Assembly: GCA_000004985.1 (NCBI GenBank) | Contig: GG738880.1 | Strand: one strand, 5' to 3' | Origin: Naegleria gruberi | Taxonomy: Eukaryota | Length of the DNA: 64,000 nucleotides | Notes under the pieces: generated by a model | What the model saw: only the letters and a program-made list of their open reading frames with translations | Database searches by the model: none | What the model was told of the DNA's origin: nothing | In this document: one piece after another, positions 2,243 to 42,342 of the stretch | Layout: each line of letters begins with the position of its first letter | Position numbering within the stretch: the stretch's first letter is position 1 | Program-made: the position numbers and the translations under genes

Positions 2243-3688
2243 ATGCAAGTCCCATCATCTTCGACTGCTGGTAATGGAGGTGGAAATAATCATCAACAAC
2301 AACCACTCAATAATGGTGTTAGTGAAACAACAATAGCAAACGCTAAACAACCTTATGTTCATCATTTTAGGATTGCAAAGAAGAAAACAACACTAGAATT
2401 CAAGATGGTTGATGCAAAGGATATCAGAAAGAATATGTATGGAGCACAAAACAGATTAAATCATCAACAACAAGAATTACTACTGAATTCTTTTACTGCT
2501 TCATCAGATATGAATGTATCACCTAATGATCAAATATCAACATCACAACAACAACATTTGACATTACCAGATAATTCTTCATCACCCCAAAACGCAACAA
2601 CATCACAACAACAACATTTTAATCACGACAAATCAAGAAAACCAAGAGCCCCGAGTCTATTTTCAACAAATAGTAAAATTACAAAGAAGCAACAAGCTAA
2701 TAGAAGAAACTCTACTATTATGATATCAGATCCAACTGGTTTTCTCCAACAAGTTTCTCCTACGAATAATAACTATCATCAAGATACAAACAGCTTTTCA
2801 CAATCATCTAGTGTTTTTGTTTCATCTAATAAGAATGTACATCCGGTAAATAACAACAGAAGAAAATCGACAACATCCCTATCAACAAATGAAACTTCTG
2901 CAATTTTCCCACCAACCACTACTAATACAACCACTACTAATCATCCGCAACATTCTCACTCACCTATTTATAATAATACCATCAACTCTCCTCCTTCAAC
3001 ACCTTCCCAACAACAAACGGCACCAACTTCATATTTTACTACAGGTTTTTCATTCGGCAATTCCCAAAAAGATGAATACACACCACCTATGGCTAATACT
3101 TTAACAAGTGGATTTTCTAACTTTAAAAATTCTAATGAAACAAACAGTTTTCAAGACAATTTATATGGAGATGCTTATGTAAGCACTTTAACACCTGAGC
3201 AGAGACGTTATTTAATGCAAGGAGCAAGAAGAACTTTTGCAACTCTTCCAAGTATTGAGGAAATGACTAGGTATGATGAAATGAGAAGAAATTCTATTGA
3301 GGAACTTACTCAAAACTTCTCACAAGTTTCAACATCGGAATCACCAAATAATAATAATAATAATAGCAATAACAATAATCAAAGAAGGCCAAGTACCGAT
3401 TCTCAAAATATGTTGGTTATTTCTGAAAATTTCAGAAATGATCAAAGATTCAGAAGGAGACAAACTTATGCATTTGATACAGAACATTTCTCTAGTTATG
3501 ATAACAGTTGCTTAGAATCATTTAACTTCCCTTGCAAACCTCCAACAAATTTTCAACCCCCTAATTCCACACCAAATAATCATCCTCAATCGAATGGCTC
3601 AGGCTCATCCTATCCCAATAATAATTCTTCTGCAGATAATAACCACCCTTACTACCTTCCTCCATTATCCAAATTAATACACGAATAA
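2243..3688 (+). CDS. hypothetical Q/N/S/T-rich low-complexity protein
   Basis: Uninterrupted 481-codon ORF that begins with ATG; composition is biased toward poly-N, poly-Q and S/T runs; no recognisable domain. Confidence 0.5.
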   Translation: MQVPSSSTAGNGGGNNHQQQPLNNGVSETTIANAKQPYVHHFRIAKKKTTLEFKMVDAKDIRKNMYGAQNRLNHQQQELLLNSFTASSDMNVSPNDQISTSQQQHLTLPDNSSSPQNATTSQQQHFNHDKSRKPRAPSLFSTNSKITKKQQANRRNSTIMISDPTGFLQQVSPTNNNYHQDTNSFSQSSSVFVSSNKNVHPVNNNRRKSTTSLSTNETSAIFPPTTTNTTTTNHPQHSHSPIYNNTINSPPSTPSQQQTAPTSYFTTGFSFGNSQKDEYTPPMANTLTSGFSNFKNSNETNSFQDNLYGDAYVSTLTPEQRRYLMQGARRTFATLPSIEEMTRYDEMRRNSIEELTQNFSQVSTSESPNNNNNNSNNNNQRRPSTDSQNMLVISENFRNDQRFRRRQTYAFDTEHFSSYDNSCLESFNFPCKPPTNFQPPNSTPNNHPQSNGSGSSYPNNNSSADNNHPYYLPPLSKLIHE

Positions 3689-3740: not shown

Positions 3741-5354
3741 ATGAACACTTTGTGGAGACGATTGTCTATCCTGAATAAATCCTCTAAAATACTAAAATCA
3801 TCTTCATCATCAGCAACTTTAGTAAAATTAAATTCGGGAAGGAATAATTTTAGTACATCATCCAACAAAATTCTCTCAACACAACAAAATAATGATAATA
3901 ATTATACAGTTTTAAGTGTGGATACATCGGGACTTGTTCAAGAGACTTACGATAGTACAATAGTCAAAGAACATGAAACTCCAATGGTAAAACATTTAAA
4001 AAACAAAATTAAAGGAGCAGGACCAATTTCCGTATCAACATTTATTCAAGAAACATTATTGAATCCAATTTATGGTTATTATTACACTGCAAAGAAAACA
4101 TCATTGGACAATTCAAAACAAAATGTGATCGGAAGAGAGGGTGATTTCGTTACTTCACCAGAAATTTCTTCAGTATTCAGTGAAATGATTGGATTGTGGT
4201 GTGTAGATATGTGGACAAAATTAGGAAAGCCAAAGCAAATAGAACTTGTTGAATTAGGTCCTGGTAAAGGTACTTTAATGCACGATTTATTGGATAGTTT
4301 AGTTCAATCTAAAAATTCACCAACTATTGATGCTTTCAGACAATCTGTAAAGAAAGTTACAATGTGTGAAGCTTCAGAGGCTTTAAAGGAGGTACAAAAG
4401 GACAAACTCAAGTCATTTACAGAAACACACGAATTTAATTGGATTGACAGATTTGACAAGTATTCTGACTTTGATAGTAATATGCCTGTACTAATTATTG
4501 CTCATGAATTCTTTGATGCCTTACCTGTATATCATTTTGAGGTGAGTTTTAATTGAGAAGTTGAAAATTTAATTTTGGAATAGTACACTGAAAGAGGTTG
4601 GATGGAAGTATTGGTTGATATTGATGATGCAAAGGATTCACCACATCATTTCAAGTTTGTATTATCACCAGGACCAACAATGGCAACAGCATTTGTTAAC
4701 TTGGTTGAAGGAAAGAAGGATGTTGGTTCTATCAGAGAAGTTTGTGCAATGGGTATTGGATATGTTGAAAAAATTGGTGAAATTTTGAACAATAGAAAAG
4801 GTGGTTCATTAATTATTGACTACGGAAATGATTATCCTATGGGATTCACCCTTCAGGGTATTTATCAACACAGGTTTACTGAAACTCCTTTGGAAAAGCC
4901 AGGTGAAGTTGACTTGTCTACTTTTGTTGATTTTTCAAGTTTGAGGAAGGCAGTTGAAAAATTCAAAAATGTTAAGGTTTATGGACCTCAATACCAAGCA
5001 GACTTTTTACATCAAATGGGAATGGATGCAAGATTTGCCAAATTACTTCAAAATCCAAAACTTTCTCCTGAACAAGTTACATCAATGATAACAGCTTATG
5101 AAAGATTAACACACCCAACTGAAATGGGTCATCACTACAAGGCCATGGCTCTTGCCCATTTACCATCCAACAAGCTCACAGCCACAGGTTTCGATATTAA
5201 TCTCATTCCAAAGAGGGAAGCAACCCCAAACATGAAATCCCAAAGAGTTGCCCCAACACCAACCATTATTCATGGTAATAAGGAGGGTGAAACATCTAGA
5301 ATCAAACCATCTGATAAGAAAACTGTTCCAGCTGATGTTGGTATGTTCATATAA
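3741..5354 (+). CDS. NDUFAF7: NDUFAF7/MidA-family protein arginine methyltransferase (complex I assembly factor 7), mitochondrial
   Basis: Two exons, 3741..4541 and 4584..5354, joined by a 42-nt intron (GTGAGT..TAG). ELGPGKGTLMHDLL, FVTSPEISSVFSEMIG and [16 protein letters not shown]...YTERGWMEVLVDID align with human NDUFAF7 ([28 protein letters not shown]). Confidence 0.85.
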
Positions 5355-5608
5355 ATCAATGACTTTACAAAATTCATCCAAATATGTTAATTTCTGTATG
5401 CCATTCAATTTTGGTCATAATATTGTGCTCTGCAGTTTCTCAATGATCTCACAACTAAGCAAACAACAAACATATCATGTGAACATCTAGCTGTTGCATT
5501 CCGAAGCATATCTATCCGTTTTAATGTCCTAATATTGTTGATCTTGATTTCTTTCATGCTTTGTTCATCTCTATGGAAATTTTCCTTCCCTAACCAAAAC
5601 AAAAGAAA

Positions 5609-5830
5609 ATGTCCTCAGCAGCCAAATCAACAACAACCTCACCAAGCACTGCCACTCTTCCACAAAAGAAGGAAAGAACTGGAGCTGGTCCACAATCAAT
5701 GTGGTATAAATCCTTTATAGTATTTATCTGGTATTTCGGATCATCAGTTGGATTTGTTGGATTGTTTGCATTGTTAGCCTATTATTATGAACATTATTAC
5801 TCGAAGGGAATTGTCAATCCATTCGAATAA
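5609..5830 (+). CDS. small single-pass (tail-anchored type) membrane protein, SERP/RAMP4- or Sec61-beta-like
   Basis: 73 aa: polar K/S/T-rich N-terminus, GP...MWYKSF, then one hydrophobic helix FIVFIWYFGSSVGFVGLFALLAYYY; the layout resembles RAMP4/Sec61beta, but similarity is weak. Confidence 0.35.
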   Translation: MSSAAKSTTTSPSTATLPQKKERTGAGPQSMWYKSFIVFIWYFGSSVGFVGLFALLAYYYEHYYSKGIVNPFE

Positions 5831-6156
5831 ACACCATCCATCATCATTAAATAATTTTCCCTTTATCACCTAATTCCTTCTCTTCTGTAATAGTATGGAT
5901 CATCTTTAACGGTGATCAACAAATTCAAATTAAATAATTAATTTTGTAATTAATAAAGTCTTGATACTACATTCCGTTTTGATATTGAAAAAATTAGCAG
6001 TAAACACAATTACTACTACTCTCATCATTACAGAAATCATCAATTAGATATTTTGTGAATTTGAAATAATTTTCGTATCGATTTGAAATTGCACAAAATC
6101 CTTCAAATTCAAACTGGATACACTGGTGTGAAAACAGAAACAAAAAAACAAACAAA

Positions 6157-6840
6157 ATGGAAATCACAAAGATTAATGATTATATTTTCAAAATTTCTAA
6201 TCAAAAGAGACAAACAAATGAGACTGATGTTTCTTTCGAGTGGTTCATCTTGAGAATGGATTATTCGAGTGCAGAGACAGATGGCTTGATTTATTTTGAC
6301 TTTCTCGTGAGAAATCAAACATTCCTCAAAGTACACCTTCCTCACTATCCGAATGAGGCCTATGAAAACTTGAGCTGGAGTGTGAATAGAATGAAAAGAT
6401 TATCCTCAGCTCACAATTACTTTGTTCTTGTCAAGAGTGAACAAACACCTTCCTATATTGAAAAGGTAAATCAATCAGAACCTGTGTTTGAATTCTTGAA
6501 GGATAAACTCACTATTGGAGTTTGTGGAGGGTTTACTGGTGGTAAGACAGAGTTTGATTTAATGGAGGTGGGTTATGCTCTCGATGAAAAGTTTCAATCT
6601 CATGGTATTGTTTCCAATACTTTAAAATTCATTATTGAGAAGGCCTTTAAAGAAGTTTCCTCCCTAAATCTCATCAAGCTCGTATGTAATGACTATAATG
6701 TGAAGAGTGCAGCTGTTGGAAAGAGACTGGGTTTTACATTCAATGAGGAAGAATCTGAAAAGGCAAGTAAGGAAGATAATGTAGCTCTCCATTGTTTCAC
6801 AATGACCAGAGAAGAAGCAACCAAACTCTTCCAATTGTGA
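6157..6840 (+). CDS. GNAT-family N-acetyltransferase (RimJ/RimL-like)
   Basis: 227-aa ORF; C-terminal block VGYALDEKFQSHGIVSNTLKFIIEKAFKEVSSLNLIKLVCNDYNVKSAAVGKRLGF matches the GNAT acetyl-CoA binding motifs A and B. Confidence 0.7.
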   Translation: MEITKINDYIFKISNQKRQTNETDVSFEWFILRMDYSSAETDGLIYFDFLVRNQTFLKVHLPHYPNEAYENLSWSVNRMKRLSSAHNYFVLVKSEQTPSYIEKVNQSEPVFEFLKDKLTIGVCGGFTGGKTEFDLMEVGYALDEKFQSHGIVSNTLKFIIEKAFKEVSSLNLIKLVCNDYNVKSAAVGKRLGFTFNEEESEKASKEDNVALHCFTMTREEATKLFQL

Positions 6841-6936: not shown

Positions 6937-8034
6937 ATGCAAAGATTTCTCGCTCGAATGATTGGTGCTCATGATGAAACTCCAGAACATCACACACCAA
7001 TGTCCAGTGCCTCTGAGATGAGTGACCACTTCTCACCAGATTTTAACTCCTTCCTCGATACCGTTCCTTCCATAAATTCCAAACATTCTGATTCATCAAC
7101 TGCTGCCTATCCCATCACATCGAAACAGAACCAATTGGTTGTGAATATAGGATCTGTTCCATCATCGAATATACAATCATCGACCACTGCAGCTGTTGCT
7201 CCAATCAGCATTGGTACCAAACTCTTTGACTCGAATGTGAATGTTATGCAACCATCCGATTTGGAATGTCCATCAAACTTGAGAACAGGAGCTTTTACCT
7301 TTGATCCATCTTCATCAATTGTTAGACCTGCTGCTGGAGTGGCCACTGTTCAAACTGATGATCTTTCCAAGCTATTGGCTCAACATTCTAATAGTCTAGT
7401 ACACAATCAAACAACTTTGGAAACAGCCATAACACCAAAGAGAAATTCACACAATTTGGATTCTTTATTATTGGATAGTGAAGATTCAATATCTCAATTT
7501 AGTGTGCAAAGTAGTTGTAATAGTGAAATGACAAGATCTACCAAAAGTAAAATGTCAACTAAGAGTATTCCAAAAACTCCACTTGGCACTTCATCAACAC
7601 GTAAAAGAGAATATTTGGCACTCACTAATAACTTTAATTCATTCTATAATGGCATGATTGAGAATCAAAATACTATTCTAAATGCACTTTCTGAAAAGAA
7701 TCAAGAAATCATCTCTGAAATTGCTCAATCGAGTCAATCCATTAATGATATGGGATTTAAGATTAATGATTTTGTTGCTCAACAAGTTGGTTGTTTGAAA
7801 TTGGATTTGGAAAGGGAAATTTCTCAATTACAATCCATGAATAATCAAGTATTACAACAATTAATTACCAATCAAACTCAACTCATTTCACAAATTCAAT
7901 CCCTTAATCAAACTGCACAAACTAACCAAGAAGAAAACAAAAACTTGAAACTCATGCTCTCTGGATCCATCACTATTGCCATTATTGGATTTTTGGCACA
8001 ATTTATTGTGAATAAATCTTCAAAGAGTTTGTAA
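6937..8034 (+). CDS. hypothetical tail-anchored coiled-coil protein (SNARE-like layout)
   Basis: S/T-rich N-terminal half, heptad-rich Q/N/L coiled coil, and a single C-terminal TM helix ITIAIIGFLAQFIV with a short tail. Confidence 0.5.
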   Translation: MQRFLARMIGAHDETPEHHTPMSSASEMSDHFSPDFNSFLDTVPSINSKHSDSSTAAYPITSKQNQLVVNIGSVPSSNIQSSTTAAVAPISIGTKLFDSNVNVMQPSDLECPSNLRTGAFTFDPSSSIVRPAAGVATVQTDDLSKLLAQHSNSLVHNQTTLETAITPKRNSHNLDSLLLDSEDSISQFSVQSSCNSEMTRSTKSKMSTKSIPKTPLGTSSTRKREYLALTNNFNSFYNGMIENQNTILNALSEKNQEIISEIAQSSQSINDMGFKINDFVAQQVGCLKLDLEREISQLQSMNNQVLQQLITNQTQLISQIQSLNQTAQTNQEENKNLKLMLSGSITIAIIGFLAQFIVNKSSKSL

Positions 8035-8106
8035 TTCTTTGAAGCACTTGCACATTGTAATTCAATTTGCTTTGAGAAATAATTTTTATTTAAAATTTAC
8101 AAAAAA

Positions 8107-9280
8107 ATGTTTAAACAAGTGCTTGGTTTCGGAAAGAGGAAAGGTTAATAATAATTCATTGGGAAAAATTGTAGGCTTGAGATGTTTTAGTACAAGAAAT
8201 AATTTACTATCATCAAATCAAAAGAGAATTTTGTTTTTTGGATCGGATTCATTCTCACTGGAAACACTCAAGTTATTACATTCGGAATTTGTAAAAACCA
8301 ATGAAGCTGATTTGTGTGTTCTTTGTCCACCTGATAGAAAGACAATTAGAAGAAATCAAGCCGAATATAAGGAATGTATTGTCAAGAATTATTGCATGGA
8401 AAATAATATTGATTATTTCCATCCGATTGAAACTGAAAAATCACCAGAGGAGAGAAAGAAAATTCAACGATTGGATATTACAGACATTCCGAGAGAGGAA
8501 CGATTATTTGGAGGAAATCAAGACAATTTTACTCCAAGCTTTGATGTTGGAGTGGTTGTGAGTTTCTCTTACTTCCTTCAGAAGGGATTATTGGATCAAT
8601 TTAAAACAAGGGATGGTCAACATTCTACCATATTTAATATTCACCCTAGTTTATTGCCACGTTATAGAGGACCTGCTCCTATTCATCACGCCTTACTGAA
8701 TGGAGATTCAGAGACTGGTGTCACAATTATGGAATTGGATGATAAGGAATTTGATATTGGTAATATTGTAAAGCAACAAAAATTCAACATTGAAAAAACA
8801 GAAACATTTACTCAACTTCATGATAGGTTGGCAGTACGTGGGGCTGAAATGATGATTGATACAATTCGTGCATGTAATTTTGATTTTACAAAAGTACAAA
8901 GAATCAATCAGGAAAATCTCACTAAAACCATTGCTGCCACTAGAGCTAAGAAGGTCAACTTTGCTATAGGTGAAATTTCTCTTAAGGATGAAAACGTATT
9001 TACCATTTACAATAAGTGGAGGGCTTTGGAGAAAATACACGTCCCATTCCAAAACACAAAGATTTTACTGAAACAATTAGATTATCCAGTAATTGATTCT
9101 TCAGAGGATAATACTCCAATAGGAACATTATATATTGATAGCGACAAATCTCTTTCACTCAAATGTGTTGGTGGTAAATTGAAAATCAAAGCTTTACAAA
9201 TGGAAAATAAGAAGGAAATGTCAGCAAATGATTTCATAAACGGAAATAGAGGAAAACTACCAATGAAATTATTGGCTTAA
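8107..9280 (+). CDS. FMT1: methionyl-tRNA formyltransferase, mitochondrial
   Basis: ILFFGSDSFSLETLKLLH, VVSFSYFLQKGLL and FNIHPSLLPRYRGPAPIHHALLNGDSETGVTIMELDDKEFDIGNIV are the Fmt N-terminal signatures; the C-terminal domain follows. The probable start is ATG 8107 (MFKQVLGFGKRK), a presequence-like exon joined through a putative 31-nt micro-intron 8144..8174 to GLRCFSTRNN...; the 5' end is uncertain (the track ORF starts at 8039 with a non-ATG codon). Confidence 0.8.
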
Positions 9281-9301: not shown

Positions 9302-10330
9302 TTACATGATAGAGTTTTTGATAAGATCGCACCTAGCAGACTCAAATTTCATAGTCATTTCAATAAGTTGCTCCTCCCTTTTGAAGAGCTTTGTTTCTAA
9401 ATCTTGTTTGGCAAGCAACAGTTGTTCATACTTATCTTCCAACTCAACATCTCCTACGTGTTTGTTGTTTTCCTGATACAGGTCAAGAAATATCCTAAAG
9501 GAATCATTTTTCTCCTTTTCAAAGTGACTGCTAAGAATTGAATTTTTTGCTTGATCGAGTAATTGATCTTTTGTCACTCGCTGGTGTTCTAATTGACTCA
9601 GTAAGCATTCAACATTATCCTCGGTTTCCTTATTAATCATTTTCAATTTTTCAAACTTTTCTTCTGATGCTTTCAATTTTGCTCTCAACAATTCCAACTC
9701 CTTTTTTAGTACTTGAGTTTCACTACTATTCGGTGATCGAGAGGTTTCTCTTCTAGGTCTCATATCCACACTGTGCGATATTAAACTTTCCATCTTTTCT
9801 TGTTGCTCCCTTATGTCTGATTCTCTCTTCTTGATTATTGTTTTCAACTTTTTCAACTCTTCCTGTGCCGAGAATAAGGACGTGGAGAGAAAAAAGTTTT
9901 CCTCCTTCTGACAATTTAATAGTAATTTCATATTATCCATTTCTCTCCTTAATTTTGAATTATCATCTCGGAGAGTTATAATTTCCTCACTAATTGATCT
10001 TCTCCTTGTTTCAGGTTCCAAAGTATAACCTTCAGATTGTCCCTTCTTAGAAGCCCATTTGTTATTATTCCTAATAGGTGAATTTGATGATCTACTACCA
10101 CTGCTATTAGATGAGGAACGAATGGGAGATGTTTTATAATTCCTGATGGGGCTATTAACTTCTCTTGTTATTGAATTGGGCACGATCTTACCTCGTGGTG
10201 TGCTACTAGGATTTGATGAGTGGGATTGATTGAGAGAGGAATTATTGCCCCGAGCAGATAATGGAGCTCTAGCTATTGCTGATGATGAAGATGATGAGAA
10301 GGAAGAGCTCTCAATGGTTATTCCAATCAT
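9302..10330 (-). CDS. hypothetical coiled-coil protein with an S-rich N-terminus
   Basis: 342-aa ORF with an ATG start; long heptad-repeat region (LKKLKTIIKKRESDIREQQEKMESL...); no recognisable catalytic domain. Confidence 0.5.
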   Translation of the reverse strand: MIGITIESSSFSSSSSSAIARAPLSARGNNSSLNQSHSSNPSSTPRGKIVPNSITREVNSPIRNYKTSPIRSSSNSSGSRSSNSPIRNNNKWASKKGQSEGYTLEPETRRRSISEEIITLRDDNSKLRREMDNMKLLLNCQKEENFFLSTSLFSAQEELKKLKTIIKKRESDIREQQEKMESLISHSVDMRPRRETSRSPNSSETQVLKKELELLRAKLKASEEKFEKLKMINKETEDNVECLLSQLEHQRVTKDQLLDQAKNSILSSHFEKEKNDSFRIFLDLYQENNKHVGDVELEDKYEQLLLAKQDLETKLFKREEQLIEMTMKFESARCDLIKNSIM

Positions 10331-13206: not shown

Positions 13207-15591
13207 TTATTTAAAGTATGAATATTTCACTTTCTGTTGTTCTGGTTGTGAATCATAGAATGGAAGAGATCTCTTCTTTGTTGAAGCTACATCCTCATCT
13301 TGATAATCTTCATACTCAACCACTACATCTTGATTTTGTTGTTGCTGTTGATACATGTATTGTTGTTGGGCATATTGTTGTTGAGCTTGAAGTTGAGCCT
13401 GTTGTTGAGCTGCATACATTTCTTCATCAGATTTAAGAGCAGAGTCTTTCAACATTCTACAAAATGATCTTAATCTTCTATACTTGTTAGTAATATATTC
13501 TATTAATAATTTCCAATCTTCATCCTTCTTTTCAAGAACAAAATATGATTTAGTTGATAAAATCAATTGAACAAATTTCTTATATCCATTAACTCCAGCG
13601 CTACTTTTGAGGGTAATTTGGAAAAGACCCTTCAGACTTGCGTGAATTTGTCTCATATAGGCGTGGAGATGAGGATCTAATTGTGCAATATATTCCATTA
13701 ATATCTTTCTTTGTTCTTGAAGTGCAGGATCTTCAGTTTCAATTTCATCCATCTGTCTCAATACAGTTGTAGTTGTATAAGAATAATAGTAAGAAGTTTC
13801 TTCCATTGGTGTAACTGGAGGTATCCATGATACATATCTCAAGAAAATCATTACAGCTTGTCTGTCTTGGATATTTTCGTTTCTCAAAATATAGGCATAA
13901 ATCTTACCCAAAAGAATATTTGCTTGTATGACTGTTTCCTTTTGGTTTTGGTGTGAAATGGCTGCATAAGACAATAAATGCAGCACGAGTTGCAGATATT
14001 CACTATCAAAATGAATATATTGATCTGTTTCTGCAAGAATGTCTTCAGTAAAGTGCCCAGATTCAGTAGGATCAGATGTTATGAAATTCAAATGATCTAT
14101 TCCTGTCACTCCAACAAGTTTGACGGCATAAGCAATAACTCCACCAATGTTGGCTGGAGTAACAACATCCAAAAGTGATCTAATTATTTCTACAGTTCTG
14201 TTCATGTTTGGATGTTTTTCCACTTCTTCCATTTGTTCCATGAATAATGAAAGAAGATTCACTAATTTTTTGGCTTCTGCATCCTTTCCTTCCTTGTCCT
14301 TGATTCTTGCCAAATGTTCAAAACATTTTCTCAAAAAGGCTTCTTCCTTTGGATTTTCTCCAAAAGCAGAAATGTCAGCACCCTCGTTTTTAATTCTGAG
14401 CTTCTTTTCTTCAAAGAGCTCCTCAAGTAATATTTCAACGAGTGGTCCTTCCTCTTTGGCATCTGTACAAAATTGTTTGACTTCATCAACTAAATCACTA
14501 TTTCTCAAGGAAAGGAGAACAACATTTTTAAGTACAAATATTAATCCAAAGCCAAGCTCTGAATTTTCTACCAGCAAATTGTAAACTTTCTCGTTCATAT
14601 CCAGCACAAACTCTTCTTCTATCGATTCTACTTTCTTATTTACAAGGTTAGTCACATATGATGGTACTCGAAGATAATTCACTAAATTGGATTTTTTCCA
14701 TACTACTTCCAACTCCTTTTCAAATTCAACAATTTTTTCATTAACTGTTGGTTGAGCATCTTCATCTCCATTGTCATCACCAACTGAAAAAGTGGAAGGT
14801 GCTGGCGTTACTATAGTGTTTGCATTATTTTTGAAATTTGTTTCTATTACACATTCCGTAATTTGAAGGAGGATTTTGGCCTTGAAATCTAAAAACTCCT
14901 TTTTAGTTTTCTTTTTGCTTTTCTTTTTAGCTTTAGGTTCTGTTTGTTGTAATAGATAACCTAAAATTTGTTTTATCAGTGTGGAATCCAGCTTTCCGTC
15001 CTTCATAATTTTAGGTTTAATAGAGGCATCATCCAAAAACTTCATAGTTTTAGATTTAATGGTTTGTGATGAGAGTTCATCAAAAACCCTCTTATTATCT
15101 CGCAAAGCAATTTCTTGTACACCAGACCAAAAAACTTTGCCTGTATATGTTTTCCTTGTTAAAACACTTTCCTTTTCGAACACTGTTACTGTTGGAACTA
15201 TATTTTCTATTGATGATGGTTGTGTTGTGTTTGGTGGTAAGTTGTGTTGTTCCTCTGGTTTTTGTTCAAACAAGAAGATGTCATCATTGTGGTCGTTTAC
15301 CTTTTCCAGCAAAAACAGGCCACTGGTATCATGTGATGAATTATTCACTAAATTTGAAGTATTATTACTAGCAAAAACATCCAAACTTTCACCCGATAAC
15401 ATAACCTCTTCTTTATCACTCTTTCCAAATAACAAGGAACCATTACTAGCTGCTATAGAAGAGGTATTCAACAACTCTGTTGGAGGTTGATGCTCCTCTA
15501 TCTTTATCAAAGAAGGATCAACACTCGGTGATGAAGTAAAATCATTCTCCAAACTAGTTGTATGTTGTTGTTGGTGTTCAGTATCGCTCAT
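13207..15591 (-). CDS. hypothetical large protein (helical; Q-rich C-terminus)
   Basis: Continuous 794-aa ORF with an ATG start; it converges on PLPBP with only 1 nt between the two stop codons; no domain recognised. Confidence 0.55.
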   Translation of the reverse strand: MSDTEHQQQHTTSLENDFTSSPSVDPSLIKIEEHQPPTELLNTSSIAASNGSLLFGKSDKEEVMLSGESLDVFASNNTSNLVNNSSHDTSGLFLLEKVNDHNDDIFLFEQKPEEQHNLPPNTTQPSSIENIVPTVTVFEKESVLTRKTYTGKVFWSGVQEIALRDNKRVFDELSSQTIKSKTMKFLDDASIKPKIMKDGKLDSTLIKQILGYLLQQTEPKAKKKSKKKTKKEFLDFKAKILLQITECVIETNFKNNANTIVTPAPSTFSVGDDNGDEDAQPTVNEKIVEFEKELEVVWKKSNLVNYLRVPSYVTNLVNKKVESIEEEFVLDMNEKVYNLLVENSELGFGLIFVLKNVVLLSLRNSDLVDEVKQFCTDAKEEGPLVEILLEELFEEKKLRIKNEGADISAFGENPKEEAFLRKCFEHLARIKDKEGKDAEAKKLVNLLSLFMEQMEEVEKHPNMNRTVEIIRSLLDVVTPANIGGVIAYAVKLVGVTGIDHLNFITSDPTESGHFTEDILAETDQYIHFDSEYLQLVLHLLSYAAISHQNQKETVIQANILLGKIYAYILRNENIQDRQAVMIFLRYVSWIPPVTPMEETSYYYSYTTTTVLRQMDEIETEDPALQEQRKILMEYIAQLDPHLHAYMRQIHASLKGLFQITLKSSAGVNGYKKFVQLILSTKSYFVLEKKDEDWKLLIEYITNKYRRLRSFCRMLKDSALKSDEEMYAAQQQAQLQAQQQYAQQQYMYQQQQQNQDVVVEYEDYQDEDVASTKKRSLPFYDSQPEQQKVKYSYFK

Positions 15592-17628: not shown

Positions 17629-18099
17629 TTATTGAATATCAATTGATCTAGTCTTTTTCTTTGGTTCTTCAACTACTTTTGGAACAGTAACTCTCAAAAC
17701 ACCATGTTCCAAAGCTGCCTTGACCTTATCAAAATCAGCATTTGGTGGTAAATAGACAGTTCTACTGAAAGAACCATGTGATCTTTCAACGCAGTGATAT
17801 CTTTCATTATCTTCCTTCTTTTCCTTTTCAACATGACCACTGACAGTCATGGTTCTATGCTCTTCATCAATATCAATCTTTAAATCATCCTTTGTCATAC
17901 CAGGAACATTACAAACAATTTTAACTTCATTTGTAGTTTCAGAAACATCAGTGGTTGGTTTAAATTCAGGAACTAATCTATCATCAAATCTATCAAATGC
18001 TCTCAAGAATGGATCATCAAAGAAAGTATCAACCCAATTATTGGTTCTGTGTTGTCTGGCCAATTGCTTATTATTGTGATGATTGTTGGAGCTCATTTT
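17629..18099 (-). CDS. small heat shock protein (Hsp20/alpha-crystallin family), copy A
   Basis: MSSNNHHNNKQLARQHRTNNWVDTFFDDPFLRAFDRFDD...VKIVCNVPGMTKDDLKIDIDEEHRTMTVSGHVEKEK...RSHGSFSRTVYLPPNADFDKVKAALEHGVLRVTVPK is a typical alpha-crystallin domain with a C-terminal extension. TATAAA sits about 85 nt upstream (18184..18193). A near-identical inverted copy lies at 63716..>64000. Confidence 0.85.
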   Translation of the reverse strand, partial: KMSSNNHHNNKQLARQHRTNNWVDTFFDDPFLRAFDRFDDRLVPEFKPTTDVSETTNEVKIVCNVPGMTKDDLKIDIDEEHRTMTVSGHVEKEKKEDNERYHCVERSHGSFSRTVYLPPNADFDKVKAALEHGVLRVTVPKVVEEPKKKTRSIDIQ

Positions 18100-18852: not shown

Positions 18853-21800
18853 TTATTGTTTGAGAGCAGAGCCCATTTGTTCTTTCAATTCGAATAATTT
18901 GTTCATTTGTTGATAACTGGATGTAATGAAGAAACGAGAGAAAGTATCATCCAAGTTAACCATCAAAGCACAATACATATCCTTTAAAGTCTCTTTCAAA
19001 TCATCGCTTTCAATCTTGCCACTTTTAATCAATTCGAATTGAGAATTGAATGATTTCTTGATGTGATGAGAAAAATTGATTTCCATTGGAGAATTAGTTG
19101 CCACAAAATTTTCATTCCATTCAGTAAATTCTTTTTCCAGATCTTCCATTGATGGAATATTTCCCCTATTAATTTCCTCAAGAATAGGATAAAGTTTCTT
19201 CCAAAATATTACATTTTCTAATGAATGTTCTGTCTTGGCAAATTGTTCAAAAACTTGACAAAGTATTGGTTGAATAAGAATATCCTTGATTTGATTATCC
19301 TCTTCCACATCTTCATTTCCAATCTGTGAAGTATAACCCTTTTTAGAAGCCAAGTATTCATAAATGGAAATAATTGAAACTAATCCACCAAAACTTAAAA
19401 TCAAAAGTAAATTATAAATCACTTCAAAAATATAGCCAACAATTAAATAGCTCTCTCTTGCATTGAGTGAAGTCTGTGAGGTGAGATAGGAGAAACCCAT
19501 TGCATTGGAAATTACATAGAACGCAATACTAATGAAAAATAAGGCAAATTCCTTTCTGAAGGAAAGATTGTCATTCACAATAAAGTAATTCTTGATTGGG
19601 TTAATGAAGAGTTTCTTATCTGTTTCTTTCAATTTGGAATTCAATTGAACATATCTCAATTCCATATAAATATCCACTGCATAGATAACACAAACAAGTA
19701 ATGAAATGGTCATTACAAATGCAAATAATGAGCTTGACATAATTTTTGTGTAGGTGTCTCCATCAATTGCACTCCTTCCCATCAGTGAAATGAAGATAAC
19801 AAAATAAATAATAATGAATAGAGCAATAACAGCATTCCACACAATAGAGAAAAACTTGTTGGTGAGAATGATCTTGGTCCACTTTAAAAAGGTATCAGTT
19901 TGAGTTTCTTTCTTTTCACTCAAAATGGCCATCAATTCATAAACATATTTGAATGTAATATATCTCAAATTGAACATTAAATAGTTCAATAATGAGAGGC
20001 AATAGAAAGTGCAACTAATCATTGTAAAAACGGATTGGACTATTGAGCTATCTCCACTTCTATCCAATAACATTGAACCAGGAATAATCACGCTAAAAAG
20101 CAGTTCAATAATAAGAGATACCAGGGCAAAGTAAGGAAGATACCATCTGCTCTTTGTTGGATTCCTTCGTGAGGTTATAATTAATCCAACAATTGCAACA
20201 ATAGCCAATACAATCAAAATTGAGCTGACAACAATTTTTCCAATGGTGAGAGGTATGCTACTGTATTTGGTAAATTGAAGGAATGCAGAGAATGTAGTGG
20301 TATGATTACATTGACAGTCAATAATACCATTAGATTGGTCAACCAGAGTTTTACATCCATCTGTTTTCCATAATCTTTCAGTTTCATCGAAATACTTGCA
20401 AGAAATAGTTAGTTGTGTGGAATTGGATTGGATGCTTTCTATGGTGCTCTTATCTACATTAAATTTAATGCTGATAGGGTTAGAGAGATTCGAAACGTTG
20501 AGAACTTGACCATTGGAAATATACTTGAGATCAGTAACCTTGGCCAAATTGACAAATGACGTTCCTGCTAATCCAATTAAATTATTGTAGGAATAGTTAT
20601 TACTCAATACAGATCCAGATATTAAGGAGGCCAACTTTTCAACATTTAAATAGGTAACACTTCCAATAGAAATATCTTTTAAAGTACTTAGCTCACTAGG
20701 AGTTACTACTGTGGTATTTCCATCAGAAACAATTGATTGATTGATATTTCTGGCAACTGACACTATAAAAGAAGCTGTAACCACTTGGAAAATACTATCT
20801 GATTGGGATGAAATTCTAGTGGCCACCATTACCGTTTTCTCAATAATTGAATTACTTTCTGAGCTAATATTGAAATTTTGAGACGAGTAGCAGTTAGAAT
20901 ATGCCATTAATACATTTGACAATGTTGATTCGTATGAAGCACTTGAGGTCTTTAAGGTATTCGAATCCAGTTGACTAAGTTCCTTGGAAATATTAACAGC
21001 TAAATTAGAGATGGTGTTCAGAATAGTCGAACTAACTTGAGATTGGGATGTAATGACAGACAATGCTTCTGTAACTTTGAGAGTTTCATCAGCATTGGAT
21101 GCATTTCTTTGTAAAGTTGAAATAGCGTTAGTGACAAGTTCCAAAACTTGAACAACATTAGTTGACTTGGAATAGGTATCCTTATTAGATGCAATGGTAG
21201 CAACATCACTAATTGGTAAAGTTTTGAGGAAACTTTCAGAAAAAACACTTTCGTATTCCATTACTTGTAAAGTATTGGAAAAGTCAACTGTGAATGATTC
21301 AGTTCCTAACGTGGCTGTTATAGAACATGAATAATTTCCCTTCTTCATGAACTTATCAATTGAAATAATCAATGGATTGGTGAATGATTGGATGTTCAAA
21401 GGTGTATTGAAATATGTGGTCAATTGATTTTTGCATTTCATTTCATAAGTAGCTGATTGGTAAACTGATTTGAATGATTCCGCATAGTTCAGTACTACTT
21501 TAACACTTGTATTAGTGTAAGTGACAGTTGAATAAAACTTTACATCAAATACAGGAGTCAGGCAATCTTTTCCATACCATCCACTTGTACAACCTGAAAT
21601 TACATACTTTCTAATAGTTGAATCTGCAACAATTATAGATCCATCATTAGTAATAGAAAGTGAGTTTGGCTGGAAGAGTATTATTTCATTCTTTCCTGGT
21701 GTTCCAATTATTGTTGAGATAGTATTCGATGATCTATACCATCTTCTAATACATTGATTGGATTTTTCTAAAATAGCCATATCTCCATTAGAAAAGAATG

Positions 21801-23630
21801 CAAAGTGATTTAATCTCATTGAATAAGTTTCTGGTGTTAGATCTGTTTCATTAGAATAAGTAATACAATCAGATTTTCCAAATAAGGTAATAAGTGATTT
21901 GTTTTGCATAATCTTGTACATATTACACAAAACTGAATCATAAAATACAATATTACCATCAATGGGATCTACTGACAAACGGTTAACAGATTTTCCAAAC
22001 AATGTATCGTTACCAACAAACACATCAAGAATTCCATTACTGTCAACTGTAAAAATTGACCCAACACTGCCAATAAATATCTTTGAATCATTCATCATAA
22101 CTGATCCTATTTTGATTGATGAATTAGAAGCCAAGCCCCCATATTGAACTTCATTATGAGCGTGGTATCCTCCAATTATTGTTGTCATTACTCCACTCAC
22201 ATCAATTTTCATCACTGCTGTAGTGTTGGCAAAGTACAGATTATCAGAGTTTTCAAACAATGAAATTGAAGTACCAACAGGTGAATTAATGGCAAGAGTT
22301 TCACCTACAACATAGGAAATGCCAAACGAATCTGTTCTTCCATTACCAGCAATAATAGTAGAAATACCATTCGTATATTTGTGAATGAATGGAACAGCAG
22401 CTTGGTAGGCATATCTCAACTCTCCACTCTGCTTATCCACAATAAATTGTGAAACAGTATTCAAATTGGTATTGTTTGCCAGAGTTGGCTCATTATTTCT
22501 CACAAAATATTTGGTTGAGCATTCTCCTGCAATAACAGCATTTGAAGTTCTATTGTAAATAAATCTTGTTCTTTCTGAAACAATTACATTACCAAATGAA
22601 TCAATCAAATAGGCATATGGTGAATTAATTCCTGTATTATTCAATACAGCTTGTTGAGCAGTATTAATTTCATAAGCTAAAATTGGTTGACCATTAGCAC
22701 TCGACATGTAGAGAGTTTCTCCAAATTTAACTAGTTTAGTTGGATAGAGTGTTGGATCATACACTACAGTTTGCATTTGTCTTGTATTCAAATCGATAGC
22801 TGTAAGTTTTCCAACAATTGCTTCGACCACAAATAATGTATATCCATCTAAAACCAATCCTTGAGGATTTCCAAGTGAAACTTTAGCAGCCCCAACCGTA
22901 TTAATATTACCATCACCTGCTACAGTGGTTATGTTACGATAAATCATATCATACATTCTCACTTTGTTATTGCTTGTATCTGAAATATACATGTATCGTC
23001 CAGTTTCGGATATAGCAAGGCCCATTACACCATTAAATTGAATTGTTTCCATTGGATTATTATCACCACCGTAACCAGAACTACCACAAACTCCAACAAA
23101 ATCCTCAATAATATTCGTCATCAAATTTACCCTTCTAACGCAACTGTTACCAGCATCTAATATGTTTCGAATAAAAACAAAATAAACATTCATGACATAC
23201 CTGCAATATAAACATATCCTCCAAACTCAACAATATCCAAAGGGTTTGCAAGTATGGCCAAAGTAGCCAAAACACCATTTCCATAATATCCATAGGCATA
23301 ACTTCCAGCAAATTGTGAAATTTTTCCATCACTTGAAATTCGTCTAATAACATCATGTCCAGAATCGACAATATAAATCGTATTATTTGAGCCCATTTTC
23401 ACAACCTCTATCGTATCCAAACATGCCATTTTAGCATCCAATCCATCGCCATACTTGTTGAGTGAATTCAATGACATGCCACCAGCAAGTAAAGTGGAAG
23501 TTGTTGAATATTTGAAGGAACCTGAAGGATTGGACTTGGCAGTTGTTGTTATCGAAAGGAGGAGTAACAACAGTGCATGTAGTAGTACAGCCACTGACAG
23601 CAGTGAGATCAATGACGTGGGATTTGGCAT
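18853..23630 (-). CDS. adhesion-GPCR-like receptor: signal peptide, NHL-type beta-propeller, GPS/GAIN motif, 7TM and C-terminal RGS domain
   Basis: Two exons, 23202..23630 and 18853..23157 (44-nt intron, GTATGT..TAG, phase 1). N-terminal signal peptide (LISLLSVAVLLHALLLLLLS). Repeated NHL-like blades (NTIYIVDSGHDVIRRI, YVYIADAGNSCVRRV, RYMYISDTSNNKVRMYD...). S/T-rich stalk. GPS motif CKYFDETERLWKTDGCKTLVDQSNGIIDCQCNHTTTFSAFL at about 20284..20410. Seven hydrophobic helices at about 19345..20275. RGS fold (ENVIFWKKL...INFSHHIKK...MYCALMVNLDDTFSRFFITSSY) at about 18905..19270. Confidence 0.8.
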
Positions 23631-23962: not shown

Positions 23963-24313
23963 TTACATTTCAATATGCACCTTGTAAAGTGATGGGAAGT
24001 TTTGATGTGGAATTTGAGCCATCTTTTTAACACAATCACTGATATTTCTCATTTCAGTCATAGCCTTTTGGAATTTCTCTGGAGATTCCCAATGAGCATA
24101 ATTAATATATTGATATTGAGATTTTTCCATATCAAGTGCCTTATGAAGAGAGGTGTGAATGTAACCATCTTGTTTCTTCAAGAATTGAGCACATTCAACC
24201 CAAGCCAATTCAAATTCCTTTTCATCTTTGCTGTCAATATGGAATGGATTCATTAAGATGACATGTTTAGTTTTCATGGATTTCAATGGACAGTTTGGAT
24301 TGTTGAAGAACAT
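23963..24313 (-). CDS. ABM-domain (antibiotic biosynthesis monooxygenase / Dabb-like) protein
   Basis: 116-aa ORF with ATG; HVILMNPF...EFELAWVECAQFLKKQDGYIHTSLH...YQYINYAHWESPEKFQKA fits the ferredoxin-like ABM fold pattern. Confidence 0.5.
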   Translation of the reverse strand: MFFNNPNCPLKSMKTKHVILMNPFHIDSKDEKEFELAWVECAQFLKKQDGYIHTSLHKALDMEKSQYQYINYAHWESPEKFQKAMTEMRNISDCVKKMAQIPHQNFPSLYKVHIEM

Positions 24314-24532: not shown

Positions 24533-26062
24533 TTATTCTTCTCTAATATCCTCTAATTTCTCTAATAACTTGTCAACTGTGAGCTTTTTGTAATTTTCGA
24601 ATATGTCTTTGAAAAATAGAATCAACTCTTTGGAGAGAATTCTCTGGGTTTCTAAGAGTGCTATCTTTTCAGAGAGGCTTTTCTTGGCAGGAATCTCTCC
24701 TGTGGAAACATAGAACATAGTGGCTGCGTATGAATACAAATCCTCTACTTTTGAATGATTTCCTGTTCCAGAGCTATAATCATGCTTTCCTCTAAACGAA
24801 ACAGATTCAACAGTATTTTCAATAACTCTGCCAAAATCTCCCAAAGCTATTGAAATTTCTTCATTTTGTAATTTTTTGATAAACACATTGCATGGTGAAA
24901 TGTCACAATGAATTTTTTCCTTATCATGTAGGTCCTTCATTCCTTTGAGTAATTGCTTTGAAATCTCCAATATCATCTTGTTGGAAAACTTTTTTCGTTC
25001 TAATAATGTTCCGTGTTCAAAATATTCCATGAAATAATACACCTTATTATCCTTAACAAAAATCTTATTGAAATGAATCAAGTAATTGCTGTTGATATTT
25101 GCAATTTTGACTTCCTCTAATGCCTCCCTCACTGTAGCAGTGTGTAATACTCGCACTACTACATTCTCTTTTCCAGTATTCACTTTATAAATTAGAGCAT
25201 CTCCACCTTTTCCCAATTGCACTATATCGCTCTCTCCACATACTAGCAAATCCATAATCACTTTTCTTGGTTCTGTATACATTTTCAGATGAACTACTCG
25301 ATCCTTCTTATTAAGAGGAGCCAATTTTCTAATCATTACTTGAATGTCATTATCATCATTGACAATTATTGAACTATTGTTGAATTCATATTTACATATA
25401 AAATCTATTGTTGACTCTAAAGCTAATTTACTTCTGCATGCTTGTGTGAATGTAGCAAAAGATTCAAGATTTTCCTTTGTAAAACTTGTGTCTACCTTTC
25501 CATCATAATTTGTTTTCAAATTCAAAATTAGTGGGAATTTTTGTTTCGTATCAAGTTTTCTGAACTCACGAGGAACAAAACTAAATTCTGAAATCATCAC
25601 TTTCACATCGTCATCATCACTGACAACTTCCAAACTTGAATTATCTTTTCCCTTCAAAAGAAAACAATCCTCCTCAATTCCAATTAATTCAATCAGTTTC
25701 AAATAACTAATTTCCGTTGATATCCTAATCCACCTGTCCCTAAACAAAATTTCCATACCATTTGGTGATCCGACACTCGCAGTAGAACTATTCGATAGAG
25801 AGGTTGAATATTCTTCATCATTCAAAACTCTAGATATTGATGTTTTACTAGAATTACTACTTCGTATCGTTACACTCGTTGGAGAGCAAGAGAGTGGTGA
25901 TAGACCACCCCCTTCCGATTTTAAATCTAAAATATTCTCATCATCAGCACCTGGGTTGGAAATAATCGTCACCTCTGATGTTGGTAATTTTGAGGTTGTT
26001 TTGAAGAATTTGTTGAGCCACATTTTTTTAAAGTTTCTTTTCGTATTTGAAAGATAAGTCAT
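24533..26062 (-). CDS. protein kinase-like protein (probable pseudokinase) with N-terminal tandem beta-grasp-like repeats
   Basis: 509-aa ORF with ATG. The C-terminal half has the kinase fold (LGKGGDALIYKV, HCDISPCNVFI, LGDFG), but VAIK is replaced by VVRVL and HRD by HCD. Two repeated N-terminal units (DDDVKVMISEFSF / DDNDIQVMIRKLAP). Confidence 0.6.
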   Translation of the reverse strand: MTYLSNTKRNFKKMWLNKFFKTTSKLPTSEVTIISNPGADDENILDLKSEGGGLSPLSCSPTSVTIRSSNSSKTSISRVLNDEEYSTSLSNSSTASVGSPNGMEILFRDRWIRISTEISYLKLIELIGIEEDCFLLKGKDNSSLEVVSDDDDVKVMISEFSFVPREFRKLDTKQKFPLILNLKTNYDGKVDTSFTKENLESFATFTQACRSKLALESTIDFICKYEFNNSSIIVNDDNDIQVMIRKLAPLNKKDRVVHLKMYTEPRKVIMDLLVCGESDIVQLGKGGDALIYKVNTGKENVVVRVLHTATVREALEEVKIANINSNYLIHFNKIFVKDNKVYYFMEYFEHGTLLERKKFSNKMILEISKQLLKGMKDLHDKEKIHCDISPCNVFIKKLQNEEISIALGDFGRVIENTVESVSFRGKHDYSSGTGNHSKVEDLYSYAATMFYVSTGEIPAKKSLSEKIALLETQRILSKELILFFKDIFENYKKLTVDKLLEKLEDIREE

Positions 26063-39496: not shown

Positions 39497-40922
39497 GGCA
39501 AACTGAATTAGTTGACTGAATTATCAAATTCTAATAACTTTACATACCTTTTTGGGATTGAAGTATTGAGCAATAAACCAATTTGGTTTCTTTTACATTA
39601 GTTACATCGCCAATGGCAAACATATTTTTGAATGGTTGGTCGTTTTCATCTAAAACTTGTAAATGATTATTAACTTGGATGAAACCGTTCGAATCCAAAC
39701 TATTTGGAAATTCGTCTCTTAACATTTCAGATTGTGGTTTCAATCCAGTGCACAGAAAACAAACATCACATTCAATATCAATGAATGTATTCAATTGACT
39801 ATTCTGAATTCTAAAAGTTGTTGAATTTGATTGAGAAACAATCTCACTCCATAGGTGAATCTTTACATTTCTCATTGTTTCGAATACTTCACTAACTTTC
39901 TTACTTGCTTCTTCACTAGAAGGTTTCATAATTCTGTCAGATCTTTGAATAATATGAATAGTCTTTTCAGGATACTTTTCAGCAATAGAGCCTGCAATTT
40001 CACAGCCAACAAAACCTCCACCCACAATACAAATATCTTTCAGAGATGAGTTTCTGATAAATTCATGAGAATCGAGAATGCTTTGGGAATTGTAACAATT
40101 TACAAACTTGATTTGATTGTCAGAGCGGAGAGTTGGTAAATTGAAACGACATGTACATCCAGTACCAATCAATACGAAATCATATTCTATAGTTTCAGTG
40201 ATTTCCTCAGTTGACTTGGAATGAATTCGATAATGAATGAGGGATTTGTCAATTTTTGAAACCTTTCCAGCAATACAATTTGCTCTTGGAAGAGTGTTTG
40301 CATGATTAACAGATAAATGTTCAGCCACTGCCTTATCTTTGACCATAAAAGGAAAACCAGGAGCAAAATCCAAAGCTCCGTTGAGATCAATAATTGTGAC
40401 ATCAAATAAATCTCTGATGGTTTTATCCTTACATGCAGTGTAGCCACCGAAACCACCTCCAACAATAACTAATCTAGGTTTCATTGAAAGTTTAAATAGG
40501 TTTCTGTCAATTTTGGAAGAATCGTTTGGTTTGAAAAGGTTTAGAACAATTGAAACTAAACCTTGCAATGGATGAAATAGTCCTAAATTGGATGTTTCAG
40601 CAATGGGTTCTATCCAATTCATAATGCACATAATCTTCACTACAAGATAGAATTGACTTTCAGAAATGTCAAAAGTCTTTTCCATTAAATCCATCAAATC
40701 ACCCAAATAAAAGCAGTAATGTTGTAGTTGACCAAACCATTCAATTCTTCTTGAGTGCATTTTCAAACCACTTTCAAACCTTCTCATTCTGTAAATTGAG
40801 AATTCCTTCAAAACCTTGACAAACTCTCCATTCATTATTTCTTCAATTTGTTCTCTTGTCAAATTGGTTTCTGACTTTAAATATTCGAAACCCTTCTTGA
40901 TTACTTCTTGTTGTGTTTGCAT
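39375..40922 (-). CDS. AIF/AMID(FSP1)-like FAD-dependent pyridine nucleotide-disulfide oxidoreductase with an N-terminal extension
   Basis: Main exon 39548..40922 (track ORF 39540..40922): about 140-aa N-terminal region of unknown function, then RLVIVGGGFGGYTACK, ICIVGGGFVGCEIAGS and FAIGDVTNV (Pyr_redox_2). A possible 3' exon 39375..39502 follows a 45-nt GTATGT..CAG intron (adds VCQLLKQFVHQPSNEITNNIKPYSPRGYEQ...). That exon overlaps the 31-bp inverted repeat, so the 3' end is uncertain. Confidence 0.7.
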
Positions 40923-41478: not shown

Positions 41479-42342
41479 TTAGTGTGAAATGTTGCATTCC
41501 TTGATAATTTGCTCAGCTTCCTTTAGTGCTTGCTGTTCTGGAATGTGGTAGAGATTTTGAAGAGCTGAGGAAATTTCTTTTTGAGCTTGTTTTGAATTGA
41601 CCTTTTCACATAATTTCACAATTTCAACAAGAGGAGATGATTTTCTTGGAGATGTTGGTGATGTACTAATAGTACTTGCTTCATTCTTAACACCTTCTTG
41701 CAAGGAGTGTGTTAAAACCTTCTCAAAGAAAGTGGTCTTGGAATTTGTTGAAACTCTTTCCTTTTCCTTCAATATTTCCTCAGAATCTTGTGCAGTTTGT
41801 TGAAGTGGTGTAAGCTTTGGGAAAGCCATTTCGTATTTTCCAACAAAAATGTTTCCAAATGTTTCACTAATTTCCTTTTCATGTTTTTCAATCCAACCAA
41901 TGGAAGAACTATTTGTTAATTTGTAATGTTTGTTATTTACAATAAGAACAAGTGGTATTTGTCGTGAAAATACATGTTCATAGATGAGTTGAATAGTTGC
42001 CACATCATTCTTTGTAACTTTCTTATCGGAAATAACACAAATTAACATGTGAATTCCAAAATCTAATTTTTGAATGGTTTGTTTTAATTGTTTGTAGGCA
42101 TTGAAGGTGGTAACAACTTGGTCAGTGATGGATTCACTCTCAGCTGCAAACCAGCCCAAAATATCGAATAATTCATATTCTATTCCATTGTATGAACAGT
42201 TGACACTAGAAATATTGGCATGAGCAGAAGTATCTCCAATTGTAAGAGAAGAATTGGTTATTTGGTTGATAATTGTTGACTTTCCAACACCTGTAGGACC
42301 AATAATGAGAAGTTTCTTTGTTTGAGTGGTGGCAGATGGCAT
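41479..42342 (-). CDS. P-loop GTPase (AIG1/GIMAP- or MMR_HSR1-like G domain) with a C-terminal S/T-rich tail
   Basis: 287-aa ORF with ATG; LLIIGPTGVGKSTIIN (G1), a DILG-type G3, and LVLIVNNKHYK as a loose NKxD-like G4; the family assignment is tentative. Confidence 0.55.
   Translation of the reverse strand: MPSATTQTKKLLIIGPTGVGKSTIINQITNSSLTIGDTSAHANISSVNCSYNGIEYELFDILGWFAAESESITDQVVTTFNAYKQLKQTIQKLDFGIHMLICVISDKKVTKNDVATIQLIYEHVFSRQIPLVLIVNNKHYKLTNSSSIGWIEKHEKEISETFGNIFVGKYEMAFPKLTPLQQTAQDSEEILKEKERVSTNSKTTFFEKVLTHSLQEGVKNEASTISTSPTSPRKSSPLVEIVKLCEKVNSKQAQKEISSALQNLYHIPEQQALKEAEQIIKECNISH

Follow-up and report, generated by a model that had tools for sequence, protein, structure and literature searches.

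Gene structure and domain architecture

The 64,000-nucleotide stretch of Naegleria gruberi contig GG738880.1 analyzed here (the window) carries, on its minus strand at 18853..23630, a two-exon gene encoding a 1577-residue membrane protein. An earlier note on this stretch had proposed that the product is a receptor consisting of an NHL ectodomain, a GAIN domain with its GPS motif, a seven-transmembrane (7TM) core, and a cytosolic RGS domain. Pfam searches, AlphaFold models, and fold searches agreed on this four-part architecture, and the protein almost certainly belongs to the "7TM RGS" family of Heterolobosea, with NHL propellers, GAIN/GPS, 7TM, and cytosolic RGS parts. The features of the gene and its product are listed below; TM denotes a transmembrane helix.

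18853..23630, minus strand: whole gene, ATG to stop; 4734 nt coding, 1577 residues, two exons
23201..23630, minus strand: exon 1, 430 nt; residues 1-143 and the first base of codon 144; ATG at 23630
23157..23200, minus strand: intron, 44 nt, GT..AG (GTATGT...TAG); ends GTATGTCATG...ACATATTAG
18853..23156, minus strand: exon 2, 4304 nt including the stop (codon 18853-18855); NHL region to RGS domain in one frame
23538..23630, minus strand: signal peptide or N-terminal hydrophobic segment, residues 1-31
22507..23507 (intron included), minus strand: NHL-type beta-propeller 1, residues ~42-360, six four-stranded blades
21592..22494, minus strand: NHL-type beta-propeller 2, residues ~365-665, six blades
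21262..21591, minus strand: EGF-like Cys-containing linker (GCTSGWYGKDC) and small beta-sandwich, residues 666-775
20815..21255, minus strand: GAIN subdomain A, helical, residues 778-924
20272..20793, minus strand: GAIN subdomain B, beta-sandwich, residues 932-1105
20275..20403, minus strand: GPS motif CKYFDETERLWKTDGCKTLVDQSNGIIDCQCNHTTTFSAFLQ, residues 1062-1104, matched by Pfam GPS
20296..20304, minus strand: predicted autoproteolysis triad H1095-T1096/T1097 (slash, predicted cleavage), followed by the tethered-peptide-like strand TTFSAFLQF
19348..20265, minus strand: seven-helix membrane core, residues 1108-1413, with TM1 at 1113-1137, TM2 at 1148-1172, TM3 at 1182-1204, TM4 at 1243-1270, TM5 at 1283-1306, TM6 at 1346-1368, and TM7 at 1380-1410
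18856..19302, minus strand: cytosolic RGS domain, residues 1429-1577, with the Pfam match at 1434-1560

The spliced reading frame contained a single stop codon, at its end, and the splice junction (...YVYIA/DAGNSCVRRV) formed a typical NHL blade motif. Retention of the intron would place a stop codon within it, after residue 146. The 1577-residue product was identical, residue for residue, to the public protein EFC42358.1 (XP_002675102.1; UniProt D2VLB5). The gene is thus already annotated in N. gruberi NEG-M; the public model XP_002675102.1 has the same splice as ours and bears the name "RGS-domain-containing protein". The spliced model of the earlier note, with its 44-nt intron, was correct, although the coordinates given for the intron (23158..23201) were one base off. 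An uninterrupted open reading frame (ORF) at 18853..23193 (1446 residues) spanned both the NHL region and the RGS domain. Since a single 4.3-kb stop-free exon covers the two, the RGS part does not belong to a gene of its own, in agreement with its initial assignment to the same gene.

A Pfam scan of the spliced protein gave four matches, every one over its gathering score: GPS at residues 1062-1100 (32.9 bits; cut-off, 22.5), RGS at 1434-1560 (30.2 bits; cut-off, 23.9), TEN_NHL with its best stretch at 434-499 (28.3 bits; cut-off, 27.1), and NHL with its best stretch at 639-656 (25.6 bits; cut-off, 20). The NHL, GPS, and RGS assignments, which had been made from the sequence alone, were therefore confirmed by profiles. 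Two AlphaFold2 (AF2) models were built, one of residues 1-803 from an eight-sequence alignment (predicted local distance difference test [pLDDT] score, 70.7) and the other of residues 740-1577 from a 40-sequence alignment (mean pLDDT, 81.9). In the latter, GAIN subdomain A was followed by GAIN subdomain B, whose last strand is that of the GPS and leads straight into TM1; the seven long helices came next, and then the RGS domain, which was helical. Its top Foldseek match was the inactive structure of the GAIN and 7TM parts of CD97 (E 6e-8).

N-terminal segment, NHL propellers, and linker

The N-terminal signal-like segment was hydrophobic over residues 3-33, with a peak hydropathy of 2.82, and formed a helix at residues 8-27 in the AF2 model. 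It was followed in the model by 12 four-stranded blades arranged as two six-bladed propellers. NHL blades had been recognized from the start, but "several blades" understated their number. The best Foldseek matches of the N-terminal model were tandem-propeller ectodomains, including those of a teneurin-like protein and LRP6. Consistent with this fold, a phmmer search against PDB sequences matched propeller 1 to the NHL region of a teneurin-like protein (E 2e-25), as well as to SOQ1 and NHLRC2, and residues 593-659, in propeller 2, matched the NHL domains of TRIM2/3. The two NHL propellers are likely to be a ligand- or surface-binding module.

The linker and small beta-sandwich at residues 666-775 had no Pfam match; strands were present there in both AF2 models, with low-to-moderate confidence. 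The part of the ectodomain previously described as an S/T-rich stalk turned out to be the helical GAIN subdomain A, with this small beta-sandwich before it.

GAIN domain and GPS motif

The GAIN fold was matched by Foldseek to CD97, BAI3, Gpr126, ADGRL3, and CELSR1. The GPS motif reads CKYFDETERLWKTDGCKTLVDQSNGIIDCQCNH and then TTTFSAFLQ, and C1063, W1073, G1077, C1078, C1091, C1093, H1095, T1096, T1097, and F1102 were invariant in the family. Two residues past the first GPS Cys lies Tyr1065, which we take, solely by motif position, to be the counterpart of latrophilin-1 Phe803. A Gly-Cys pair is present as G1077-C1078. The canonical GPS triad is H-X-S/T, and efficient cleavage also requires a His-stacking aromatic residue and the Gly-Cys pair; the F803Y substitution retains cleavage (PMC13062082). 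Autoproteolysis of the protein described here is predicted from these sequence features.

The earlier note had taken Thr at P1, in place of Leu, as a sign that cleavage may have been lost. We surveyed the 104 matches of the representative search (described below) that had a recognizable GPS. H-T-T was by far the commonest triad (88), followed by HLT (8), HAT (6), HMT (1), and HTG (1). His was present in 104/104, Thr at the following cleavage position (+1) in 103/104, and Phe at P3' in 102/104; the aromatic residue that positions the His was Tyr or Phe in 94/104. H-T-T also fits the H-X-S/T consensus (PMC13062082). Because Thr at P1 is the conserved state of the family, it gives no ground to expect that the predicted cleavage site is dead.

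Among the weaker matches, two G-protein-coupled receptors (GPCRs) of the GPR128 (ADGRG7) adhesion type with a 7tm_2 core (P0143 and P0156) also had H-T-T at the GPS (CQCNHTTNFAVLM), indicating that Thr at P1 is not restricted to the Naegleria family. Other weaker matches were GPS motifs fused to protein kinases: in P0113, the kinase domain was combined with LRR repeats, two stretches of GPS, and a TM-like segment, and in P0125 with a GPS motif.

Membrane core and topology

Hydropathy analysis gave exactly seven hydrophobic segments between residues 1113 and 1410, and seven helices were also present in the model. The predicted cytosolic loops contained 20 Lys and Arg residues versus 5 in the outside loops, and 23 N-glycosylation sequons were located in the ectodomain versus 2 in the rest of the protein. 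The loop charges, the sequon distribution, and the hydropathy fit an orientation with the N terminus outside and the C terminus inside, and the RGS domain in the cytosol, as had been expected of a 7TM receptor with an intracellular RGS domain.

Sequence searches found no relation of the core to known receptor cores. No Pfam 7TM family, including the 7tm_2 profile suggested earlier, matched this protein or 30 full-length relatives, and Pfam at E<=10 gave no match for 16 isolated 7TM cores. A profile of the family 7TM region found no chain at E<=10 among all PDB sequences, and alignment of the core by hhalign with five adhesion-GPCR 7tm_2 cores gave a probability of 0.1. In structure, the core was best matched by receptors of classes C and A rather than B2. 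By these results, the core has the fold of a GPCR, but no kinship in sequence with the secretin/adhesion 7tm_2 family could be detected. The protein was therefore not filed as an adhesion GPCR (class B2), since the 7tm_2 core was tested for and not found; the description "aGPCR-type" holds for the GAIN/GPS half and not for the whole receptor. The family has invariant motifs of its own on the cytosolic face, P-x-K-S-R after TM1, N-D-x-L-x-F-R-x-E before TM6, and F-G-G in TM7.

RGS domain

The modeled RGS domain was all-helical, with seven helices of at least 4 residues at 1428-1576, and its target-normalized TM-scores in Foldseek to RGS8, RGS16, RGS1, and RGS4 were 0.72-0.79. A PDB sequence search gave weak matches to several RGS proteins. 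Because BLASTP against RGS4 covered just the first motif, Gα-contact residues were compared in a MAFFT alignment of 40 family RGS domains with RGS4, the sequence of which was checked against PDB 1agr_E. The equivalent residues and their conservation among the 40 family members are given below.

RGS4 E83: E1453, 40/40
RGS4 S85: S1455, 36/40
RGS4 E87: E1457, 40/40
RGS4 N88: N1458, 40/40
RGS4 N128: N1504, 40/40
RGS4 D163: D1547, 39/40
RGS4 S164: T1548, Thr in 39/40
RGS4 R167: R1551, 40/40

The RGS4 equivalents at the Gα-contact positions are thus conserved, and a working GTPase-activating protein (GAP) surface is predicted. By analogy, the product of this gene would be expected to have GAP activity: the RGS domains of three N. 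fowleri 7TM RGS proteins and of one RGS-RhoGEF speed GTP hydrolysis on specific Gα subunits (PMC9283941).

Family and relatives

The GPS-7TM-RGS part was used as the query in an exhaustive HMMER (phmmer) search of representatives. Word-index searches with the same part or with a two-sequence profile gave one match each and missed the identical public protein. The phmmer search yielded 210 representatives at E<=1e-3, 43 of them at E<=1e-30, and many members were 1000-2600 residues long and aligned from the GPS motif through the RGS domain. The named members came from N. gruberi, N. fowleri, N. lovaniensis, and Willaertia magna; others were environmental. Short 7TM-RGS matches of 400-500 residues were JGI proteins or N. 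gruberi proteins.

When 30 family members were scanned with Pfam, RGS was found in 29 and GPS in 24. Their ectodomains varied: EGF was present in 10, NHL in 7, RCC1-like propellers in 6, and REJ in 5, and malectin, PKD, and others also occurred. The same architecture was found in relatives, where it had been suggested that it be sought. The NHL-GAIN-7TM-RGS order was collinear in the N. gruberi paralogue EFC41538.1 (51% identical, 1572 residues, E 2e-167), in N. fowleri FDP41_008291 (42% identity, 1782 residues, E 7e-85), and in one environmental contig. The environmental NHL-GPS-7TM-RGS homologue (JGI 3300002220, 4243-6591) adjoins a retroelement integrase gene (Integrase_H2C2, rve).

In N. 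lovaniensis, phmmer matched C9374_007572 at E 3e-99. The N. lovaniensis orthologue, on PYSW02000030.1, had the same order in an interrupted form. Its NHL half ends at 3479 and its GAIN-7TM-RGS half resumes at 9926, and the two halves are annotated publicly as separate genes of 997 and 764 residues. The 6.4-kb insert between them has 31-nt inverted repeats at its ends (3479-3509 and 9896-9926; 90% complementary) and carries a DDE_Tnp_1/DDE_Tnp_4 transposase gene at 7166-8263. It looks like a DNA transposon within the receptor gene.

Genomic setting

The genes identified around the receptor gene were as follows.

8396-9280, plus strand: formyltransferase gene
17629-18090, minus strand: HSP20 small heat-shock protein gene
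23963-24313, minus strand: ABM-domain protein gene
24533-26062, minus strand: protein kinase gene

These flanking genes are unrelated to G-protein signaling, and neither a Gα gene nor a second 7TM-RGS gene was seen among the neighboring ORFs scanned. The G+C content of the window was about 33% throughout. Four long intronless ORFs in the window were exact matches to N. gruberi NEG-M proteins (EFC42276, EFC42284, EFC42287, and EFC42290). Although the scaffold is annotated, 6 of the 10 long ATG-to-stop ORFs in the window (13207-15591, 24533-26062, 39540-40922, 41479-42342, 52147-53808, and 59922-61763) had no exactly matching public protein; the public models for these six probably have other starts or introns, or are absent.

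Proposed function and alternatives

As the most likely reading, at close to an even chance, we tentatively propose a surface sensor that gives its output through a membrane-anchored GAP, one that acts on Naegleria Gα and is modulated by the ectodomain. Some Naegleria Gα subunits exchange nucleotide fast and self-activate, and others are slow-exchanging (PMC9283941). In the proposed mechanism, the RGS domain would act as a membrane-anchored GAP that holds one or more Naegleria Gα subunits off. A ligand bound to the NHL/GAIN ectodomain, or a mechanical force pulling on it, would act via the GAIN strand and the 7TM bundle on the RGS domain, altering its access, its orientation, or its residence at the surface and so setting the level of GTP-bound Gα. 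The overall logic would be that of AtRGS1, with an input of the adhesion-receptor type.

Several points weigh against this proposal. The signal peptide and the topology were assigned solely by hydropathy and charge rules, and the confidence of the N-terminal model was only moderate (pLDDT, 70.7). The GPS strand could be conserved for the folding of the GAIN domain and not for an agonist function. For this gene, the GAP activity, the GPS cleavage, and the coupling of the ectodomain to the RGS domain are all predictions.

A different output, that of the earlier note, is conceivable, though rather unlikely: the 7TM core may act as an exchange factor upon engagement of the ectodomain or the tethered peptide, and the fused RGS domain may rapidly shut off the same Gα, so that the receptor terminates its own brief, sharp signals. 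The GPCR fold of the core and the presence of slow-exchanging Gα subunits in Naegleria would fit such a receptor. However, the core has no sequence relation to any G-protein-coupling GPCR family, its invariant cytosolic motifs are specific to this family and are not known coupling motifs, and the precedent among 7TM-RGS proteins, AtRGS1, works as a GAP rather than an exchange factor (cited in PMC9283941). A regulated GAP resembling AtRGS1 is at least as likely as a self-terminating receptor.

It is improbable that the RGS domain mainly anchors Gα or other partners, or that the main role of the protein is adhesion or shedding. Some RGS domains without GAP activity now serve as scaffolds (PMC3971589), the ectodomain is large (about 1100 residues), and GAIN domains permit shedding. 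Against this, the residues that contact Gα and support catalysis in RGS4 are conserved, under apparent purifying selection, in the 40 family members, and related RGS domains of N. fowleri are active GAPs (PMC9283941).

That two adjacent genes were read as one, or that the gene is a decaying one, is very improbable: the orthologous locus of N. lovaniensis is indeed split by a transposon-like insert and annotated as two genes, but here the ORF is a continuous 4.3-kb stop-free exon with all domain hallmarks intact, and the paralogue, N. fowleri, and the environmental contig show the same collinear architecture. A fused gene or pseudogene was therefore rejected.

Returning to the ectodomain-modulated GAP, a more specific form of it is doubtful: the GAIN domain may be a working autoprotease whose tethered strand, T1097-TFSAFLQF, acts on a core that is not of the secretin/adhesion type to switch the built-in RGS GAP. 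If so, the protein would be a mechanosensitive "adhesion-RGS" receptor that releases or imposes a brake on self-activating Gα, and coupling between GAIN and 7TM would have arisen, or been put to use again, in a remote branch of eukaryotes that lies outside the 7tm_2 lineage of animals.

The combination of parts, which the earlier note had considered undescribed, is not new, because the exact protein is public and GPS-bearing 7TM-RGS proteins of N. fowleri were published in 2022 (PMC9283941). What is new here is the NHL ectodomain variant, the family-wide H-T/T triad, and the 7TM core without a relation to 7tm_2; the architecture itself was part of the 2022 report. The gene confirms that Heterolobosea assemble many receptors by joining swappable ectodomains, here two NHL propellers, to GAIN/GPS, a 7TM core of their own, and a fused RGS domain. 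For adhesion-GPCR biology, the family provides a natural experiment in which the GAIN domain and its tethered strand are joined to a different 7TM core and to a predicted GAP output instead of G-protein activation, and its strictly conserved H-T/T triad is a test case for the effect of the P1 residue on self-cleavage. In Naegleria, with the pathogen N. fowleri among its species, such receptors are candidates for surface sensors that act upstream of Gα signaling.

Comparison with known systems

The closest known proteins are the 28 "7TM RGS" proteins that Bosch et al. (2022, J Biol Chem) described in N. fowleri, several of which have GPS motifs and EGF-like or lectin/carbohydrate-binding ectodomains and were called "reminiscent of the adhesion GPCRs" (PMC9283941). 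The protein described here belongs to the same family by sequence and has the same layout of ectodomain, GPS, seven TM helices, and C-terminal RGS domain. It differs from the published N. fowleri proteins in its NHL ectodomain, encoded by an N. gruberi gene that is known from its sequence; the text and supplements of Bosch et al. that were examined make no mention of NHL ectodomains (PMC9283941).

With animal adhesion GPCRs (class B2), the protein shares a complete GAIN domain (A and B) directly before TM1 and a modular, adhesion-type ectodomain. The GPS is also shared, with its four Cys residues, Trp, Gly-Cys pair, H-X-T triad, and hydrophobic tethered-peptide-like strand. In contrast, no sequence test assigned the Naegleria core to 7tm_2, and a cytosolic RGS domain is added. 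To our knowledge, such a domain occurs in no animal adhesion GPCR.

Polycystin-1 and sea-urchin REJ-type GPS proteins likewise have a GAIN/GPS beside the first TM helix, and REJ occurs in 5 of the 30 family members scanned. A polycystin-type protein was rejected as an identification, since the protein has seven TM helices and not eleven, no PLAT or PKD_channel match in Pfam, and an RGS tail.

With AtRGS1 and with other plant and protist 7TM-RGS proteins, the protein shares its seven TM helices and the cytosolic RGS domain that comes after them. The Naegleria protein differs from AtRGS1 in its ectodomain of about 1100 residues; AtRGS1, as far as we know, has neither a large ectodomain nor a GAIN/GPS. 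De Mendoza et al. (2014; PMC3971589) note that 7TM-RGS architectures occur widely among bikonts. The logic of the two systems is likely shared, in that a receptor-like GAP would act in both on Gα that activates itself (cited in PMC9283941 and PMC3971589).

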